Virus record (IMG/VR): IMGVR_UViG_2671181064_000002
Strand: one strand, 5' to 3'
DNA length: 9,709 nt
Source: a virus
Taxonomy: Duplodnaviria; Heunggongvirae; Uroviricota; Caudoviricetes
The translations under genes were made by a program, and so were the position numbers. Under the pieces are notes generated by a model. The model saw only the letters and a program-made list of their open reading frames with translations, was not told where the DNA came from and did not search any database. Positions 2,202 through 9,709 of the stretch are shown piece after piece (within the stretch, counting starts at the first letter, position 1; every line of letters starts with the position of its first letter).

Positions 2202-2577
2202 TATTCAGCAGGTTATGGAACGGTGGGGGGCTTGGGCTGCAAACACTCATGAAGATGTATCCTGGGCGTCGATCGCTGCTGGTTTTAAAGGGTTAATTCC
2301 GTCGAAAGTGAAATCACGCCCTCAGTGTTCTGATGATGATGCAATGATAATTTGTGGCTGTATGGCCCGGTTGAACAAGAAAAATCAGGATTTGCACGAT
2401 TTGCTGGTGGATTATTACGTAGGTGGAATGACTTTTATGAGTCTGGCACGGAAACATGGGTGTTCGGATACCTGTATTGGCAAGCGCCTGCAGAAAGCGG
2501 AAGGGGTTATTGATGGCATGTTGATGATGCTTGATATCCGGCTGGAGATGGACAGATACGTAGAACGAATTATGTAG
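2191..2577 (+). CDS. Late-gene antitermination protein Q (Phage_antitermQ / QuuD-like family)
   Basis: [23 protein letters not shown]...[24 protein letters not shown]...[24 protein letters not shown] matches my recollection of DLP12 QuuD-type Q proteins. ATG 2191 preceded by AGGTGA; overlaps rusA stop (2199-2201). An in-frame ATG at 2170 is the alternative start. Confidence 0.85.
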
Positions 2578-2581
2578 GTGC

Positions 2582-2611
2582 TTGACCAGACACATTGTCC
2601 GGGGCTATATT
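2582..2611 (+). promoter_or_regulatory. Candidate late promoter pR' (TTGACC - 18 nt - TATATT), 5 nt after the Q stop
   Basis: -35 TTGACC 2582-2587 and -10 TATATT 2606-2611. Position immediately downstream of Q matches lambdoid late-promoter architecture. A perfect 6-bp hairpin CGCCAG-CAAAAT-CTGGCG at 2619-2636 lies in the predicted initial transcript. Confidence 0.5.
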
Positions 2612-2670
2612 CCTCACGCGCCAGCAAAATCTGGCGTCGGGATTGGAACCCCGGATAGAGACCGCGACAG

Positions 2671-2697
2671 ACACACGCCGCGAGCGTGTTTTTTATT
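2671..2697 (+). terminator. Candidate tR' intrinsic terminator (short pR' transcript of about 75-80 nt)
   Basis: Stem ACACGC (2673-2678) / GCGTGT (2684-2689), loop CGCGA, followed by TTTTTTATT. Confidence 0.55.
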
Positions 2698-2822
2698 GTC
2701 GTATGCACGCGCACATCTGAATTATGGTGGGGCGCATGGGGGAGCTGAAAAGCTCGCCGGTCGGTTTCCCGGTAGTTCCAACCCTGTGCGTCTCACCACC
2801 CGATGATTGGAACCTGACGGTG

Positions 2823-2851
2823 TTGACAGTTTCAGGTTTGCAGTTTACATT
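2823..2851 (+). promoter_or_regulatory. Candidate sigma70 promoter (TTGACA - 17 nt - TACATT) upstream of the ORF6N gene
   Basis: -35 TTGACA 2823-2828 and -10 TACATT 2846-2851. It sits about 200 nt upstream of the chosen start codon and is sequence-only, so it is weakly supported. Confidence 0.3.
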
Positions 2852-3057
2852 TCCCCGCGGTGCTCAAAACACCTCGAAAGCGGTATCCACACCCGATAGC
2901 CATGTGGTTTTTTTGTGTCCAGAATTCTTGGTTTATGACCGGGTGTGCGGCTAATACAATACCAGCAATGGAAATACGCCCGCCGACTTTCGACGGTTTT
3001 GAGCGCCCGGTCACCCTCTCAAAAGGGGTAAATCAAAATATTCGAAAGGACATGTCT

Positions 3058-3621
3058 ATGAATCGCACGTCTATTGAAAAACTCCCGTCACTTACGCATA
3101 ACCATCTTCCTGTCATGACAACAGAGCTGCTGGCTGATTTGTACGGAACAGAGCGCCAGCGTTTGACAAACAATTTCAATCGAAACAAAGAACGGTTTAT
3201 AGAAGGTAAACATTTTTTCCTGATAGAAGGTGATGCGTTACGAGAGTTGAAGAACGAAAACTCTTTAAGAGTTTCTGTGAAAATTGCCCGTAACGTTCGC
3301 TCCCTCATCCTCTGGACAGAACGTGGCGCAGCCCGTCACGCCAAAATGCTCGAAACCGATCAGGCGTGGGAAGTGTTCGAAAAACTGGAAGACTGTTATT
3401 TCAACCAGAAACAGCCACCAGCGGCACAAAACACATCTATCGAAAATGATGGATGCGCATTACTGAGCCACTTCGATAAACACGGTCAGGTTGAGTTCAC
3501 GGAAAAGGTACCCGCCGATGCGATGGTATGTACTCTGGAACGGTTTAAATTTTATCTGGAGCAACACGGGTGGATCGTTGCCCGTAAAGAGCAACTGGTG
3601 GAGCGGTTGATGCGGTTTTAA
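3058..3621 (+). CDS. ORF6N-domain (KilA-N/antirepressor-like) protein with an uncharacterised C-terminal region; cargo gene
   Basis: N-terminal motifs LPVMTTELLADLYGTERQRLTNNFNRNKERFIEGKHFFL and SLILWTERGAARHAKML resemble the ORF6N domain. ATG 3058 lies 7 nt after AAAGGA (3045-3050); ATG 3052 is too close to that SD. The ORF is open in frame back to GTG 2860, but that extension has no domain support. Confidence 0.75.
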   Translation: MNRTSIEKLPSLTHNHLPVMTTELLADLYGTERQRLTNNFNRNKERFIEGKHFFLIEGDALRELKNENSLRVSVKIARNVRSLILWTERGAARHAKMLETDQAWEVFEKLEDCYFNQKQPPAAQNTSIENDGCALLSHFDKHGQVEFTEKVPADAMVCTLERFKFYLEQHGWIVARKEQLVERLMRF

Positions 3622-3696
3622 AAATTTTTTCCGAAAACTTTACGATCGTAAAAAGTTGAATATCCTGTTAAGAGTGGTTACTACGCCACACAGCTT

Positions 3697-3722
3697 AAAC
3701 CCGCCGATGAGCGGGTTTTTTT
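3697..3722 (+). terminator. Intrinsic terminator downstream of the ORF6N gene
   Basis: Stem AAACCCGC (3697-3704) / GCGGGTTT (3711-3718), loop CGATGA, T-run 3716-3722. Confidence 0.7.
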
Positions 3723-3772
3723 ATACCTGAAAAACGGCACAGGACGTTAAACGTGCTGGTGGTCAGATGAGT

Positions 3773-3801
3773 TTGCAGATGTGATGACATATGGTTATTA
3801 T
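3773..3801 (+). promoter_or_regulatory. Candidate sigma70 promoter for the tRNA array (TTGCAG - 17 nt - TATTAT)
   Basis: -35 TTGCAG 3773-3778 and -10 TATTAT 3796-3801; the first tRNA begins at 3811. Confidence 0.4.
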
Positions 3802-3810
3802 TCTGCCTCC

Positions 3811-3887
3811 GGCCCTTTAGCTCAGTTGGTCAGAGCGAGCGACTCATAATCGCCAGGTCGCTGGTTCAAGTCCAGCAAGGGCCACCA
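3811..3887 (+). tRNA. tRNA, anticodon CAU; probably tRNA-Ile2 (lysidine, reads AUA), tRNA-Met not excluded
   Basis: Cloverleaf folded by hand: acceptor GGCCCTT/AAGGGCC, D-stem GCTC/GAGC, anticodon loop CTCATAA, T-arm GCTGG-TTCAAGT-CCAGC, encoded CCA. Closely resembles my recollection of E. coli tRNA-Ile2. Confidence 0.85.
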
Positions 3888-3888
3888 A

Positions 3889-3965
3889 CCACCACTAGCT
3901 CATCCGGATAGAGCATCAACCTTCTAAGTTGACGGTGCGAGGTTCGAGTCCTCGGTGGTGGGCCA
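3889..3965 (+). tRNA. tRNA-Arg (anticodon UCU, reads AGA)
   Basis: Acceptor CCACCAC/GTGGTGG (unusual C1-G72 pair), D-stem GCTC/GAGC, anticodon stem TCAAC/GTTGA with loop CTTCTAA, T-arm CGAGG-TTCGAGT-CCTCG, encoded CCA. Confidence 0.8.
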
Positions 3966-3967
3966 GC

Positions 3968-4043
<76 letters not shown>

Positions 4044-4046
4044 TAT

Positions 4047-4121
<75 letters not shown>

Positions 4122-4262
4122 GCGAGATTTGAGACGAAGGTTGTTATTTGCACTGACACAATATTGTGTGGGAATGTCTGACTCCTTACCATCTCCTGTT
4201 CTGTGATGTTGTTTTGTTGCAGTTCCAGTGCTCTTTTTTCAGCACCAGAATGGTGCATTGTC

Positions 4263-4482
4263 NNNNNNNNNNNNNNNNNNNNNNNNNNNNNNNNNNNNNN
4301 NNNNNNNNNNNNNNNNNNNNNNNNNNNNNNNNNNNNNNNNNNNNNNNNNNNNNNNNNNNNNNNNNNNNNNNNNNNNNNNNNNNNNNNNNNNNNNNNNNNN
4401 NNNNNNNNNNNNNNNNNNNNNNNNNNNNNNNNNNNNNNNNNNNNNNNNNNNNNNNNNNNNNNNNNNNNNNNNNNNNNNNNNN
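4263..4482. other. Assembly gap (220 N)
   Basis: Uninterrupted run of n. True length and content are unknown. Every six-frame ORF crossing it is an artefact. Confidence 1.
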
Positions 4483-4584
4483 ATTGGTGTGCTGGGAAGT
4501 CTGCTTCTGGGGCTTCTGACTTATCTGACAAATCTGTATTTCAAAATAAGAGAAGACAAGCGTAAGGCTGCGAGAGGTGAATAA
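4483..4584 (+). CDS. Holin, 3' fragment (S21-like pinholin C-terminus); 5' end lost in the gap
   Basis: Translation [33 protein letters not shown] matches my recollection of phage 21 / DLP12 EssD-type holin C-termini. Stop TAA 4582-4584 overlaps the endolysin ATG. Confidence 0.7.
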
Positions 4585-5081
4585 TGTCGCCATCATTACG
4601 CAAGGCTGTTGCAGCTGCTATTGGTGGTGGGGCTGTTGCTATAGCATCTGTGTTAATCACTGGCCCAGGTGGTAACGATGGTCTGGAAGGTGTCAGCTAC
4701 ATACCATACAAAGATATCATTGGTGTATGGACTGTATGTCACGGACACACCGGAAAAGACATCATGCTCGGTAAAACGTATACCGAAGCAGAATGCAAAG
4801 CCCTCCTGAATAAAGACCTTGCCACTGTCGCCAGACAAATTAACCCGTACATCAAAGTCGATATACCGGAAACAACGCGCGGCGCTCTTTACTCGTTCGT
4901 TTACAACGTGGGCGCTGGCAATTTCAGAACATCGACGCTTCTTCGCAAAATAAACCAGGGCGATATCAAAGGCGCATGTGACCAGCTACGTCGCTGGACA
5001 TATGCTGGCGGTAAGCAATGGAAAGGGCTGATGACCCGTCGTGAGATTGAGCGTGAAGTCTGTTTGTGGGGGCAGCAATGA
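4584..5081 (+). CDS. SAR endolysin (signal-anchor-release lysozyme, R21 / T4-lysozyme-like)
   Basis: N-terminal Gly/Ala-rich weakly hydrophobic segment [20 protein letters not shown] typical of a SAR domain; catalytic E-x8-D-x5-T pattern in [17 protein letters not shown]. Lies directly after the holin. Confidence 0.9.
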
Positions 5082-5542
5082 GCAGAGTCACCGCGATTAT
5101 CTCCGCTCTGGTTATCTGCATCATCGTCCGCCTGTCATGGGCTGTTAATCATTACCGTGATAACGCCATTACCTACAAAGAGCAGCGCGACAAAAACGCA
5201 AGAGAACTGAAGCTGGCGAACGCAACCATTACTGACATGCAGCAGAGACAGCGTGATGTTAATGCACTCGATGCTAAATACACGAAGGAGTTAGCTGATG
5301 CGAAAGCTGAAAATGAAACTCTGCGCGCTGATGTTGCCGCTGGTCGTCGTCGGTTGCACATCAAAGCAGTCTGTCAGTCAGTGCGTGAAGCCACCACCGC
5401 CTCCGGCGTGGATAATGCAACCAGCCCCCGACTGGCAGACACCGCTGAACGGGATTATTTCACCCTCAGAGAGCGGCTGATGACGATGCAGATGCAACTG
5501 GAAGGGGCACAGGAGTATATCCGCACTCAGTGCATTAAGTAG
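5078..5542 (+). CDS. Rz: Rz-like inner-membrane spanin
   Basis: ATG 5078 overlaps the endolysin stop (ATGA). N-terminal TM segment [14 protein letters not shown] followed by a charged coiled-coil periplasmic domain. Position after the endolysin and the embedded Rz1 frame support the call. Confidence 0.8.
5298..5480 (+). CDS. Rz1: Rz1-like outer-membrane lipoprotein spanin, embedded in the +1 frame of Rz
   Basis: AAGGAG (5285-5290) 7 nt before ATG 5298. Signal peptide with lipobox-like LVVVGC, then a proline-rich mature peptide (KPPPPPAW...PAPDW), about 41 aa. Confidence 0.75.
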
Positions 5543-5584: not shown

Positions 5585-5935
5585 ATGCCATCACTAATCC
5601 CACGTGCCTGCCGTAAGCGTGGATGTGCAGGTACAACCACAGACAGTTCGGGTTACTGCGATAAACATCGCGGTGAAGGCTGGGTGCAGCACCAGCGCGG
5701 ACTGAGCCGCCACCAGCGTGGCTATGGCTCAAAATGGACGGTGATTCGTGCCCGTATTCTGAAGCGCGATAAAGGTCTGTGTCAGTTGTGTCTGCGTGTC
5801 GGTGTGGTGAGCGAGGCGAAAACCGTCGACCACATCATCCCGAAAGCGCATGGCGGAACAGACGCAGACAGCAACCTGCAGAGTCTGTGCTGGCCCTGCC
5901 ATAAAGCGAAAACAGCGCGCGAACGAATCCGGTGA
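5585..5935 (+). CDS. HNH endonuclease (packaging-associated, HK97 gp74-like)
   Basis: HNH motif CQLC...DHIIPKAHGGTDADSNLQSLCWPCHKAKT. GAGG at 5576-5579 precedes ATG 5585. Sits directly upstream of the terminase genes. Confidence 0.9.
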   Translation: MPSLIPRACRKRGCAGTTTDSSGYCDKHRGEGWVQHQRGLSRHQRGYGSKWTVIRARILKRDKGLCQLCLRVGVVSEAKTVDHIIPKAHGGTDADSNLQSLCWPCHKAKTARERIR

Positions 5936-6017: not shown

Positions 6018-6056
6018 ATACCCGCGAAAAATGAAATTTAACCAGGAGTGCCGCAT

Positions 6057-6551
6057 ATGGCTGGAACGGCGGGGCGTTCCGGGCGTCGCCCCAAGCCAAC
6101 GGCGCGCAAGGCGCTGGCCGGAAACCCCGGCAAGCGAGCCCTGAACAAAGATGAACCTGTTTTTACGCCCATCAAAGGTGTTGAGCCACCAGAGTGGTTC
6201 GCTGAAGAAGATCTCCCTCTCGCCACGATCATGTGGCAACTGACAACCAAAGAACTCTGCGGTCAGGGCCTGCTGTGCGTGACTGACCTGGCGGTACTTG
6301 AGCGGTGGTGCGTGGCCTATGAGTTCTGGCGACGTGCCGTGAAAAATATTGCCATACAGGGCAACACCATCACCGGTGCAATGGGCGGCAGGGTCAAAAA
6401 TCCGGAGCTGACCGCCAAAAAAGAACAGGAGTCCGAGATGAGCAGCACGGGGGCAATGCTCGGACTCGACCCCAGCAGCCGCCAGCGTCTGATTGGCCTG
6501 GCGGGGCAGAAGAAAGCCACTAACCCGTTTCTGAAAATTATCGAATCATGA
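6057..6551 (+). CDS. terS: Terminase small subunit, P27 family
   Basis: N-terminal [29 protein letters not shown] is characteristic of the P27 family. AGGAG (6044-6048) lies 8 nt before ATG 6057. Stop overlaps the terL start (ATGA). Confidence 0.85.
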
Positions 6552-8281
6552 GCCGGAAATCTTACCCCAACGTAAATGCTGCAAATCAGTATGCCCGGGA
6601 TGTCGTGCGCGGAAAGATTGTTGCCTGCCAGTTTGTGATTCAGGCCTGCCAGCGCCATCTTGATGACCTGATGGCGGAAAAAAGTAAGTCGTTTCGTTAC
6701 CGCTTCGACAAGGACCTGGCTGAACGGGCCGCGAAATTTATTCAGCTGTTGCCGCACACCAAGGGGGAGTGGGCATTCAAACGGATGCCCATCACGCTGG
6801 AGCCGTGGCAGCTATTTGTGATCTGCTGTGCGTTTGGCTGGGTCAATAAAGGCACCCGGTTGCGCCGCTTCCGGGAGGTGTACACCGAAATCCCCCGTAA
6901 GAACGGCAAATCAGCAATCTCTGCCGGTGTTGCCCTGTATTGTTTTGCCTGTGATAACGAGTTTGGCGCGGAAGTGTATTCCGGTGCCACGACAGAGAAA
7001 CAGGCGTGGGAAGTCTTTCGCCCGGCGCGACTGATGTGTAAACGCACACCCATGCTGACGGAAGCGTTCGGGATTGAGGTTAACGCCTCAAACATGAACC
7101 GTCCGGAGGATGGCGCGCGGTTTGAACCGCTGATCGGCAACCCAGGTGATGGTTCATCACCCCACTGTGCCGTGGTTGATGAATATCACGAGCATGCCAC
7201 CGATGCGCTTTATACCACAATGCTTACCGGGATGGGGGCGCGACGTCAGCCACTGATGTGGGCCATCACCACCGCCGGGTACAACATTGAGGGGCCGTGC
7301 TACGACAAGCGGCGGGAAGTCATCGAGATGCTCAACGGCTCGGTGCCTAACGATGAACTGTTCGGGATCATCTATACCGTTGATGAAGGTGACGACTGGA
7401 CCGGCCCGCAGGTGCTGGAAAAAGCCAATCCAAATATTGGCGTGTCGGTTTATCGCGAATTTTTGTTAAGTCAGCAGCAGCGTGCGAAAAATAACGCCCG
7501 TCTGGCAAACGTCTTTAAAACAAAACACCTCAATATCTGGGTGTCGGCGCGTTCGGCGTATTTCAACTTGGTGAGCTGGCAGAGCTGCGAGGATAAATCA
7601 CTGACCCTTGAGCAGTTCGAGGGGCAGCCGTGCATTCTGGCCTTTGACCTGGCGCGTAAGCTGGATATGAACAGCATGGCGCGACTTTATACCCGCGAGA
7701 TTGACGGTAAAACGCATTACTACAGTGTGGCCCCGCGTTTCTGGGTACCGTATGACACGGTGTACAGCGTCGAGAAAAATGAAGATCGACGGACAGCCGA
7801 ACGCTTTCAGAAATGGGTGGAAATGGGCGTTCTGACCGTTACCGATGGTGCGGAGGTGGATTATCGCTACATCCTCGAGGAGGCCAAAGCGGCGAACAAA
7901 ATCAGCCCGGTCAGTGAGTCACCCATCGACCCCTTCGGGGCGACCGGGTTGTCACATGACCTTGCTGATGAAGACCTGAATCCCGTCACTATCGTCCAGA
8001 ACTTCACCAATATGTCCGATCCGATGAAAGAGCTGGAAGCAGCGATTGAATCGGGACGTTTTCATCATGACGGCAATCCCATCATGACCTGGTGTATCGG
8101 CAACGTGGTCGGCAAAAACATGCCGGGTAACGATGATGTGGTGAAACCCGTCAAAGAGCAGGCGGAAAACAAAATCGATGGTGCAGTTGCGCTGATTATG
8201 GCGGTTGGCAGAGCCATGCTGTACGAGAAAGAAGACACGCTGTCTGACCACATTGAGTCCTACGGGATCCGCTCGCTTTAA
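6548..8281 (+). CDS. terL: Terminase large subunit (ATPase/nuclease, HK97-like Terminase_1 type)
   Basis: 577-aa ORF with Walker A-like PRKNGKS and Walker B-like AVVDEYHE; translationally coupled to terS. Confidence 0.95.
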
Positions 8282-8292
8282 CTGAGGTAATT

Positions 8293-8475
8293 ATGATCAT
8301 GCTGATTCTCGCGCCTCTGGTGGGCGTGCTGGGTGCGCTTTTGCTGGCGTATGGTGCCTGGCTGATTTATCCCCCGGCGGGTTTTGTTGTTGCCGGGGCG
8401 CTGTGCCTGTTCTGGTCGTGGCTGGTGGCGCGATATCTCGACCGTACACGGCAGTCTGTCGGCGGAGGTAAATAG
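8293..8475 (+). CDS. Hypothetical small membrane protein (60 aa, two predicted TM helices)
   Basis: GAGGT (8284-8288) before ATG 8293. Two hydrophobic stretches ([23 protein letters not shown] and [19 protein letters not shown]). Stop TAG 8473-8475 overlaps the candidate portal start GTG 8475. Confidence 0.5.
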
Positions 8476-9631
8476 TGTTCTTTTCGGGATTATTTCAACG
8501 AAAAAGCGATGTGCCGGTGACCACGCCAGCAGAACTGCTGATGCTATCGGGCTGTCATACGACACCTATACCGGAAAGCGGATCAGTAGCCAGCGGGCCA
8601 TGCGCCTGACGGCGGTCTATTCTTGCGTCAGGGTGCTGGCAGAGTCTGTTGGTATGCTGCCCTGCAGTCTCTACAAAATCAGCGGTACCCTGAAAACACG
8701 GGCGGTGGATGAACGACTGCATAAGTTGGTTTCGGCAAAACCTAATGGCTACATGACACCGCAGGAATTCTGGGAGCTGGTTATTGTCTGCCTGTGTCTA
8801 CGGGGGAATTTTTACGCCTACAAGGTAAAGGCACTGGGAGAAGTGGTGGAGCTTCTTCCGATAGATCCGGGCTGTGTGGAACCGAAGCTGAACAGCCAGT
8901 GGCAGCCGGTTTATCAGGTGACGTTTCCGGATGGTTCCGTGGATGTGTTGACCCAGAATGAAATCTGGCATGTGCGCACCCTGACGCTGGATGGACTTGT
9001 CGGGCTGAATCCCATTGCGTATGCGCGTGAGGCCATTTCACTGGCAGCGGCAACCGAGGAGCACGGTGCCAGGTTGTTTAGTAATGGTGCGGTGACATCC
9101 GGTGTGTTGCGTACGGAACAAAAGCTCACGCCGGATGCTTACGAGCGTCTGAAGAAAGATTTTGAGGAGTGTCACACGGGGCTTGGCAATGCTCACCGCC
9201 CGATGATTCTGGAAATGGGGCTGGACTGGAAGTCGATGGCGCTGAACGCCGAGGACAGTCAGTTCCTGGAAACCCGCAAGTTTCAGCTGGAAGAAATCTG
9301 TCGTCTGTTCCGGGTGCCGTTGCACATGGTGCAGAACACCGATCGCGCCACCTTCAACAATATCGAAGAGCTGGGGCTGGGATTTATCAACTATTCACTG
9401 GTGCCGTATCTGACCCGCATCGAACAGCGGATCAACACCGGACTGGTACGAAAAAGTAAGCAGGGCGTTTATTACGCCAAATTTAACGCCGGGGCGTTAC
9501 TGCGCGGGGATATGAAGTCCCGTTTTGAAGCCTACGCCACCGGGATCAACTGGGGAATTTACTCTTCCAATGACTGCCGCGACCTGGAAGATATGAATCC
9601 GCGTCCCGGTGGTGTAATGCCGATCAGTTAA
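8475..9631 (+). CDS. Portal protein, HK97 family; apparent frameshift near the 5' end (possible pseudogene or sequence error)
   Basis: Main body is the frame-2 ORF 8384-9631 with portal-like sequence (TGKRISSQRAMRLTAVYSCVRVLAE...). The best start, GTG 8475 with GGAGG 6 nt upstream, opens frame 0 ([26 protein letters not shown]...), which stops at 8607-8609. The two frames are both open only across 8475-8606. Confidence 0.8.
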
Positions 9632-9663
9632 GGATCAGTTGACCGATCCAGTGGCTGTGTAAG

Positions 9664-9699
9664 AATCCGGAAACGCTCACTTGTTTCCGGATTTTTTTA
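9664..9699 (+). terminator. Strong intrinsic terminator immediately downstream of the portal gene
   Basis: Perfect 10-bp stem ATCCGGAAAC (9665-9674) / GTTTCCGGAT (9683-9692), 8-nt loop, then a T-run to 9698. Confidence 0.7.
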
Positions 9700-9709
9700 T
9701 GCACATTGG

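Follow-up and report, generated by a model that had tools for sequence, protein, structure and literature searches.

In phage lambda, the gene for gpW, a soluble head-tail joining protein, is small and separates the large terminase gene, A, from the portal gene, B. In Streptococcus thermophilus phage 7201, the slot between the large terminase gene (terL) and the portal gene of an HK97-type head module is occupied by ORF23, which encodes a 59-residue two-helix protein of the DUF1056 family (PF06341, PHROG 1142). The gene that concerns us here, ymfR, is known from the e14 prophage remnant of Escherichia coli K-12 MG1655, where it is flanked by truncated terL and truncated portal pseudogenes, and from phages phiP27, ST64B, SfI, SfII, SfIV and 118970_sal3, where annotators describe the product of the 183-nt gene that separates terL from portal as a membrane protein or putative integral membrane protein (L37 in phiP27, Sb3 in ST64B and SfII_03 in SfII). 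It has been listed as part of e14 (PMC11541549) and appears among the unknown membrane-protein clones of a first-round screen (PMC10299036), and its mRNA in K-12 was increased (log2 4.5) alongside that of other e14 genes in the LP-600 experiment, in which the lexA (SOS) regulon was also induced (PMC10012262). Here we analyze the copy of this gene found at positions 8293 to 8475 of a 9,709-nucleotide stretch of DNA from a tailed phage (Caudoviricetes; IMG/VR record IMGVR_UViG_2671181064_000002), the whole of which we refer to as the window, and we compare the terL-portal junction of this phage with that of other HK97-type lineages.

The ymfR open reading frame (ORF; 8293..8475, plus strand) runs from an ATG to a TAG stop codon at 8473-8475 and encodes a product of 60 residues. 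Immediately upstream lies terL (6548..8281, plus strand), which encodes a large terminase subunit of 577 residues (Pfam TerL_ATPase, 8e-26; TerL_nuclease, 4e-33), is 98 to 99% identical to the terL of SfIV and SfV, and ends in a TAA stop codon at 8279-8281. The ymfR gene has its own Shine-Dalgarno sequence, GAGG (8284..8287, plus strand), placed 5 nt ahead of the ATG. The Shine-Dalgarno sequence of the portal gene, GGAGG (8464..8468, plus strand), is contained within the 3′ end of ymfR, the last codons of which specify G-G-G-K, and both elements are unchanged in an alignment with phiP27, ST64B and SfII. The last G of the ymfR TAG is also the first base of the portal GTG at 8475. The identical 1-base overlap is annotated in phiP27, SfII and E. 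coli K-12, where it has been kept in spite of the truncation of both neighbors, and in most homologs, too, the ymfR stop runs into the portal start. Nesting of a stop codon with the start and Shine-Dalgarno sequence of the following gene is the classic layout for translational coupling, and the sequence therefore points to coupling of ymfR to portal. The first-pass annotation of the window had described a two-helix membrane ORF of 60 residues that lies between the two genes, has a Shine-Dalgarno sequence to itself and overlaps the portal start with its stop, and this description holds in every respect by sequence, hydropathy and AlphaFold2 modeling. We conclude that ymfR is a protein-coding late gene within a terS-terL-ymfR-portal operon.

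Comparison of the product with the PHROG profiles identified PHROG 502 ('membrane protein'), matched end to end (E = 2.8e-28, with residues 1-55 aligned to profile positions 3-57 of 58). The protein is identical at 58 of 60 residues (97%) to K-12 YmfR (WP_000605606), and at the DNA level the gene is approximately 88 to 90% identical to its counterparts in the phages named above. Its length, its position between terL and portal and its overlap with the portal start are those of K-12 YmfR, phiP27 L37, ST64B Sb3 and SfII_03, and on sequence grounds the ORF at 8293-8475 is a member of this group, that is, ymfR of PHROG 502, an already named gene. It is thus not a novel ORF. It is also well conserved. 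Its absence from related prophages that keep the flanking genes, which the first-pass annotation had taken as a possible refutation, is clearly not seen: each of the 83 IMG/VR loci whose terL is 99 to 100% identical carries it, and ymfR is named in 1362 of 5426 complete RefSeq E. coli genomes. Scans of the protein against Pfam, NCBIfam and PADLOC placed it in no family and gave weak, sub-threshold matches to unrelated membrane families, and an Rfam scan was negative at the ymfR locus. Small-protein family 350024 of a human-microbiome survey was considered as a possible relative and proved to be unrelated to YmfR.

Several lines of evidence indicate that ymfR is translated into a protein under selection. 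Over the 46-codon helical core, the ratio of nonsynonymous to synonymous substitution rates (dN/dS) was 0.10 to 0.30, at dS values of 0.7 to 1.7, in comparisons with homologs from Mangrovibacter, Klebsiella, Scandinavium and Citrobacter that share 60 to 65% protein identity; values for Yersinia phage PY54 were left out of this comparison and of the analysis of stop codons by frame. The annotated ymfR frame is the sole frame that is free of stops across all homologous regions. Two ORFs on the opposite strand, 8278..8565 and 8297..8449 (95 and 50 residues), were rejected as genes because stops interrupt them in homologs. The first-pass annotation had offered a spurious ORF in a non-coding spacer as an alternative, a thought that the short, GC-rich ORF and the two overlapping antisense frames might encourage. 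However, the full-length family match to PHROG 502, the purifying selection, the single open frame, the stops that homologs carry in the antisense frames and the 406 family representatives described below leave this explanation with next to no probability.

Hydropathy analysis of YmfR reveals two hydrophobic segments, at approximately residues 1-25 and 29-46, joined by the sequence Y-P-P-A-G and followed by a basic tail (R47, R51, R53 and K60). An AlphaFold2 model computed from a 40-sequence family alignment contains a helix at residues 2-25 and a second at residues 27-56, with a mean predicted local distance difference test score of 78.6. From hydropathy, the model and conservation we assign a first transmembrane helix to residues ∼2-25 (8296..8367, plus strand), with conserved G11, G14, G21 and W23, and a second to residues ∼31-46 (8383..8430, plus strand), with conserved G35, C38, W41 and S42. 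Between them, a dip in hydropathy and a break in the helix mark the turn Y26-P-P-A-G30 (8368..8382, plus strand), which is predicted to be periplasmic, and the second helix is followed by the basic, variable C-terminal tail R47 to K60 (8431..8472, plus strand), which is predicted to be cytoplasmic. The model thus describes a 60-residue helical hairpin that would lie almost wholly in the membrane, with its conserved residues small or aromatic and situated inside both helices. The topology inferred from the positive-inside rule is N-in/C-in, with the turn in the periplasm. Neither a Foldseek search with the model nor a sequence-profile search of the PDB turned up relatives; the best fold match was to V-ATPase subunit e, a generic hairpin (E = 4.4).

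The near-invariant core in enterobacterial sequences comprises P8, G11, G14, G21, W23, Y26-P-P-A-G30, G35, C38 and W41-S42-W43. Within the turn, the enterobacterial alignment shows no change at Y26 or G30 and hardly any at P27, P28 and A29, while in the broad alignment none of residues Y26 to G30 reaches 90% conservation. Remote homologs retain G11, G14, G21, G35 and S42, together with a longer pattern that runs into [YF]IV.G...WS. Residues 50-57 are variable in the enterobacterial alignment and the C-terminal G-G-[E/D/K] is invariant, the latter because the portal Shine-Dalgarno sequence is embedded there. The glycine faces (G11/G14/G21 on one helix and G35/S42 on the other) resemble zippers and tandem duplicates of the hairpin exist, which makes it probable that hairpins associate with one another in the inner membrane. 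Four such natural duplicates were found (P0153, P0172, P0182 and P0189), of 102 to 122 residues and with four helices, and they hint at a functional unit of two hairpins or more.

A few further observations on individual copies may be recorded here. Within the loci that carry a 99 to 100% identical terL, YmfR residue 54 (8452-8454) is hypervariable, being S, M, L, P, T or Q (codons TCG, ATG, TTG, CCG, ACG and CAG, as inferred from the residues); the site lies in the variable tail, and the remainder of the protein is near-invariant. A second copy in Shigella flexneri CP182557 (positions 2501-2716 of the extracted locus, L107) has decayed, with a frameshift near residue 27, in the Y-P-P turn, that yields an aberrant product of 71 residues. 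The terL-ymfR-portal segment was also recovered at 94 to 97% identity under unexpected names, namely a metagenome-assembled genome labeled 'Bacillota bacterium' (JAEWTL010000102, L098), the 1764-bp record OR844959 ('Enterococcus phage Efm 3-10') and Edwardsiella hoshinae NBRC 105699 (L100). The organism names of JAEWTL010000102 and OR844959 look like binning or labeling errors.

The family to which YmfR belongs is broad. A search of 1.84 billion representative proteins with the family profile returned 406 matches at E ≤ 1e-3, and nearly all of these are 45 to 90 residues long, which is not the pattern of a composition artefact on generic membrane proteins. Six remote matches were looked up, leading to seven contigs, six of which had sufficient flanking sequence to be judged. 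On all six, the next gene downstream of the small gene is a Phage_portal gene, the stop and start usually overlapping, and on four of the six terL is directly upstream of the small gene. Profile comparison of other junction ORFs with the YmfR family using hhalign gave probabilities of 95% for the ORF of Lactobacillus phage A2, 73% for the type found in phage SfV, 3.6% for gp3 of Gordonia phage Zirinka, and 0.3% for DUF1056 (7201 ORF23). These sequence comparisons support a single broad YmfR family that extends from phages of Enterobacterales to at least one phage of Firmicutes, beyond which lie positional and architectural analogues that have no demonstrable homology to it.

To place this junction among its relatives, we inspected 22 HK97-type lineages with a terL related to that of the window, a hand-picked and non-random sample drawn from the spread of tblastn terL matches, with SfV and HK97 added by accession. 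Twelve of the 22, from Proteobacteria, Firmicutes and Actinobacteria, have a two-helix small ORF immediately 5′ of portal, and in several of them it is unannotated. They comprise the group of the window and SfII, Klebsiella Kp4873-4, Ralstonia YO151_1, Burkholderia phi644-2 (gp3), Vibrio PhiPS02, Vibrio VaK (approximately 4210-4413 of locus L086, the real start lying upstream of the annotated one), Streptococcus thermophilus 7201 (ORF23), Gordonia Zirinka (gp3), Geobacillus PT9.1 (gp04) and three phages in which the gene had not been called. These are SfV (NC_003444, L084), with a 53-residue ORF at 2289-2450; Yersinia PY54 (L087), at approximately 2296-2493; and Lactobacillus A2 (L123), at 2303-2494. 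The annotated portal gene of SfV (2392-3666) is over-extended into the small ORF by its start at 2392, and alignment with the Ralstonia portal places the true GTG at 2440. No junction ORF was present in seven lineages, namely HK97, Staphylococcus 3A, Bacillus Gamma, Caulobacter TMCBR2, Paenibacillus Jacopo, Serratia BUCT805 and Arthrobacter Eileen, and three further lineages without a two-helix ORF have something else at the junction: a methylase in Moraxella Mcat23, Phd/Doc in a Streptococcus suis phage and a non-membrane small ORF in Mycobacterium Bench. The Phd/Doc toxin-antitoxin pair occupies 3419-4044 of the S. suis phage locus (L120), and the apparently split DNA methylase, named from its translations, occupies 4273-5035 of the Mcat23 locus (L088). 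The first-pass annotation had taken terL running directly into portal as the norm and had called the small ORF inserted and unexpected; given 12 lineages in 22 with such an ORF directly upstream of portal, the direct arrangement is about half of the picture.

The junction ORFs fall into several sequence families. Those of PY54 and phi644-2 are assigned to PHROG 502 with YmfR, those of the SfV type to PHROG 7105, those of VaK and Zirinka to PHROG 4810, and 7201 ORF23 to PHROG 1142. The SfV-type ORF (SfV, Kp4873-4 and YO151_1) resembles YmfR in being a two-helix hairpin of 52 to 53 residues with a basic tail and a stop that overlaps the portal start. The YGAW...PPAG...WSW motif is missing from it, however, and it accompanies a portal subfamily that is 28% identical to that of the window; with weak cross-matches to PHROG 502 (6e-6) beside the hhalign value above, its homology to YmfR is only probable. 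DUF1056 shares with YmfR its size, its two helices and its slot in an HK97-type head module, but YmfR gave no DUF1056 match at E ≤ 1 in Pfam and the two are positional and architectural analogues only. The PHROG 4810 ORFs (VaK_0063 and Zirinka gp3) and Geobacillus PT9.1 gp04 are small, hydrophobic and hairpin-like and lie directly upstream of portal; Zirinka gp3 has no demonstrable homology to YmfR, and VaK has weak PHROG cross-matches only. Lambda gpW shares the slot, but YmfR is a hydrophobic membrane hairpin and no gpW was found among its Pfam matches, so that the label 'head-tail joining protein W', which automatic annotation has placed on some YmfR homologs, is a position-based mis-annotation.

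Natural recombinants allow the association of the small gene with each of its neighbors to be compared. Between the window and SfV, terL is 98% identical, portal is 28% identical and the small ORFs are of different families. Between the window and Klebsiella michiganensis (L103) the order is reversed, with 37% identity in terL, 63% in the small ORF and 85% in portal, and the comparison of SfV with Ralstonia YO151_1 gives 35, 62 and 56%, respectively. In these three sequence comparisons, the small gene travels with the type of portal and not with the type of terL. We also searched the N-terminal part of the portal protein for a feature that would separate phages with the small ORF from those without it, and none was evident.

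Taken as a whole, these data lead us to propose, with about even confidence, that ymfR encodes a late-operon inner-membrane hairpin that is coupled to portal and works for the head/portal module, not for the lysogen. The hairpin would be made late, in an amount tied to portal synthesis, and would cluster at the inner membrane, where it would nucleate or hold the portal ring or early prohead. Such nucleation or tethering of the portal or prohead at the cytoplasmic membrane is the specific mechanism that we consider most likely, although our confidence in it is low and it is argued by analogy. The precedent is phage T4, in which there is a gp40-dependent, membrane-bound gp20 portal initiator that is in contact with YidC (PMC9958956). 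T4 gp40 is thus a phage factor that links assembly of the portal ring to the inner membrane, and its likeness to YmfR is a functional speculation: the T4 module is not of the HK97 type, gene 40 is not so placed upstream of gene 20, and no sequence relationship is to be expected. A wider and slightly more doubtful proposal is that YmfR-type and analogous hairpins together represent a widespread, overlooked head-assembly factor that forms a membrane oligomer or ring and nucleates or tethers the portal dodecamer. If this were so, many HK97-type phages would resemble T4 in beginning prohead assembly, and perhaps DNA packaging as well, at the membrane.

A number of observations weigh against a role of this kind. 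Sampled modules that lack such an ORF, including that of HK97 itself, assemble anyway, and as about half of the sampled modules do without it the hairpin is not a universal requirement; the sample from which this proportion comes was, moreover, chosen by hand and not at random. The only part of YmfR that is exposed to the cytoplasm, the tail, is poorly conserved, which argues against a specific, conserved contact with the soluble portal protein, and the conserved surface inside the membrane would, judging from the sequences, fit the binding of a host membrane protein equally well. Co-inheritance with portal could be, at least in part, simple physical linkage, as the overlapping stop and start give recombination no space between the two genes. 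Among the top 150 profile matches the hairpin was never fused to portal or terL, the profile and Foldseek searches of solved structures gave nothing that ties YmfR to portal, and the literature on ymfR, DUF1056, ST64B sb3 and phiP27 L37 yielded gene lists or unrelated holin text and nothing functional.

The fit of the intramembrane surface to a host protein raises the alternative of a host-directed membrane effector or moron that binds a component of the host inner membrane, for example in a block to DNA entry by superinfecting phage or in an alteration of membrane physiology, and has no role in head assembly. This resembles the cargo or superinfection-exclusion gene suggested in the first-pass annotation, and we consider it unlikely. 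The conserved residues are all intramembrane and the soluble tail is variable, as would suit a membrane target, and the terL-portal junction does take morons elsewhere, as with Phd/Doc in the S. suis phage and the methylase in Mcat23. PHROG also places family 502 in its category 'moron, auxiliary metabolic gene and host takeover', but that placement simply tracks the words 'membrane protein'. That ymfR is intact in decayed prophages (e14 and the window) might likewise be taken in favor of an effector, but a 183-nt ORF is expected to survive by chance in a decaying prophage. Against an effector, a consensus scan of the plus strand from 7780 to 8790 found no promoter-like or terminator-like site, the GC content at third codon positions (GC3) is 0.67 in ymfR and 0.65 in terL and portal, and the gene is tightly packed in the operon. 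(A 'putative rho-independent terminator' annotated within the SfII homolog was not reproduced by a terminator scan of the window and was discounted.) Whereas morons are sporadic, ymfR is present in 83 of 83 close relatives, a gene of this kind occupies the same position across phyla, and the small gene is inherited with portal. The mRNA of K-12 ymfR rises with the rest of e14, unlike that of an exclusion gene expressed in the lysogen, and the PADLOC scan gave no match. In sum, the real two-helix membrane gene of the first-pass annotation stands, with its own Shine-Dalgarno sequence and its portal overlap, but its reading as an inserted cargo gene is poorly supported.

Two other explanations would account for the architecture or for the layout, and we regard both as improbable. 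Class II holins such as S21 of phage 21 are small proteins with two transmembrane helices, an N-in/C-in topology and a charged C-terminus, and YmfR, which has a charged C-terminal tail and the same architecture in its predicted topology and is co-transcribed with the late genes, could be a hairpin like a class II holin, pinholin or antiholin that tunes membrane potential or the timing of lysis from the late operon. However, ymfR lies outside the lysis cassette, a full one being present upstream in the window (approximately 4228-5542, named from translations); YmfR has no holin-family match in Pfam or the PHROGs; the gene always adjoins portal and never an endolysin gene in the genomes examined; and a collapse of membrane potential during DNA packaging would harm the phage. 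The remaining explanation, to which we give about as little weight, is that the ORF is mainly a translation device acting in cis, which hands a set proportion of the ribosomes leaving terL on to the GTG-initiated portal gene, the peptide itself being of little importance. The stop that overlaps the portal start, the Shine-Dalgarno sequence of portal inside the ORF, the recurrence of this overlap in most homologs and the invariant GG[E/D/K], which is accounted for by the Shine-Dalgarno sequence rather than by the protein, are all in keeping with such a device. It would leave unexplained the dN/dS of 0.1 to 0.3 in the helices and the conservation of Gly, Trp and Ser positions in members that are 30 to 40% identical. 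Furthermore, a two-helix hairpin recurs in unrelated sequence families, and many relatives couple terL directly to portal without a spacer ORF.

The finding in the window is in itself ordinary, a copy of a named and widely distributed prophage gene in a dead prophage. The broader pattern, a tiny, portal-coupled membrane hairpin gene in roughly half of the sampled HK97-type head modules from three bacterial phyla, is of more general interest. The gene is often unannotated, as in SfV, PY54 and Lactobacillus A2, or is mislabeled as 'head-tail joining protein W', and several corrections follow for existing annotations: the portal start of SfV should be shifted, the missing small ORFs should be called and the position-based gpW label should be dropped. 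Carriers of the hairpin gene include plaque-forming phages with simple genetics (SfI, SfII, phiP27 and PY54), and the involvement of the membrane in portal or prohead assembly is thus directly testable.

The portal gene of the window is itself broken. Its N-terminal part (8475..8609, plus strand, frame 3) begins with the GTG described above, a start that agrees with those of phiP27 L38 and SfII_04. Relative to phiP27, ST64B and SfII, a 1-bp deletion at 8536/8537 breaks the frame about 60 nt past the start; among the 83 related loci this deletion was otherwise found only in one (IMG/VR locus L004). The rest of the gene, of the HK97 family, continues in frame 2 (8537..9631, plus strand; Pfam Phage_portal, 3e-107). 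Homology to the phiP27 portal stops at approximately 9612, and from approximately 9613-9625 the 3′ end of portal is replaced by an end of the insertion sequence IS4 (9620..9709), with the last 90 bases of the window 100% identical to the IS4 (insG) end. Copies of the IS4 end number as many as 32 in a single E. coli genome. With its portal gene frameshifted and truncated by IS4, the prophage in the window is defective. In e14 and the window alike, therefore, the portal gene that flanks ymfR has been inactivated, and the intact ymfR copy in this dead prophage may have no current role here.

The window is otherwise a typical lambdoid/HK97-type late region. Its upstream part contains ORFs resembling a replicative helicase, RusA and Q (names from translations), followed by four tRNA genes in a row at 3811-4121, Met(cat), Arg(tct), Thr(tgt) and Gly(tcc). 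A run of N at approximately 4260-4500, representing masked or unresolved bases, which gives translations with long runs of X, lies just upstream of the end of a holin-like ORF at 4584. An endolysin-like ORF (4584-5081) and a spanin-like ORF (5066-5542) come next, these three also being named from their translations, and an HNH endonuclease gene (5585-5935) and the gene of a P27-family small terminase (6048-6551) lead up to terL. Four Rfam matches scored above the gathering threshold, namely c4-a1b1 (2605-2657), isrK (2618-2694), C4 antisense RNA (2720-2803) and sRNA-Xcc1 (2937-3020), and they adjoin an ORF at 2860-3621 that resembles KilAC/Ant in its translation. Together, these matches and the ORF look like an immunity module of the P1/P7 type, with a C4 antisense RNA and an antirepressor.

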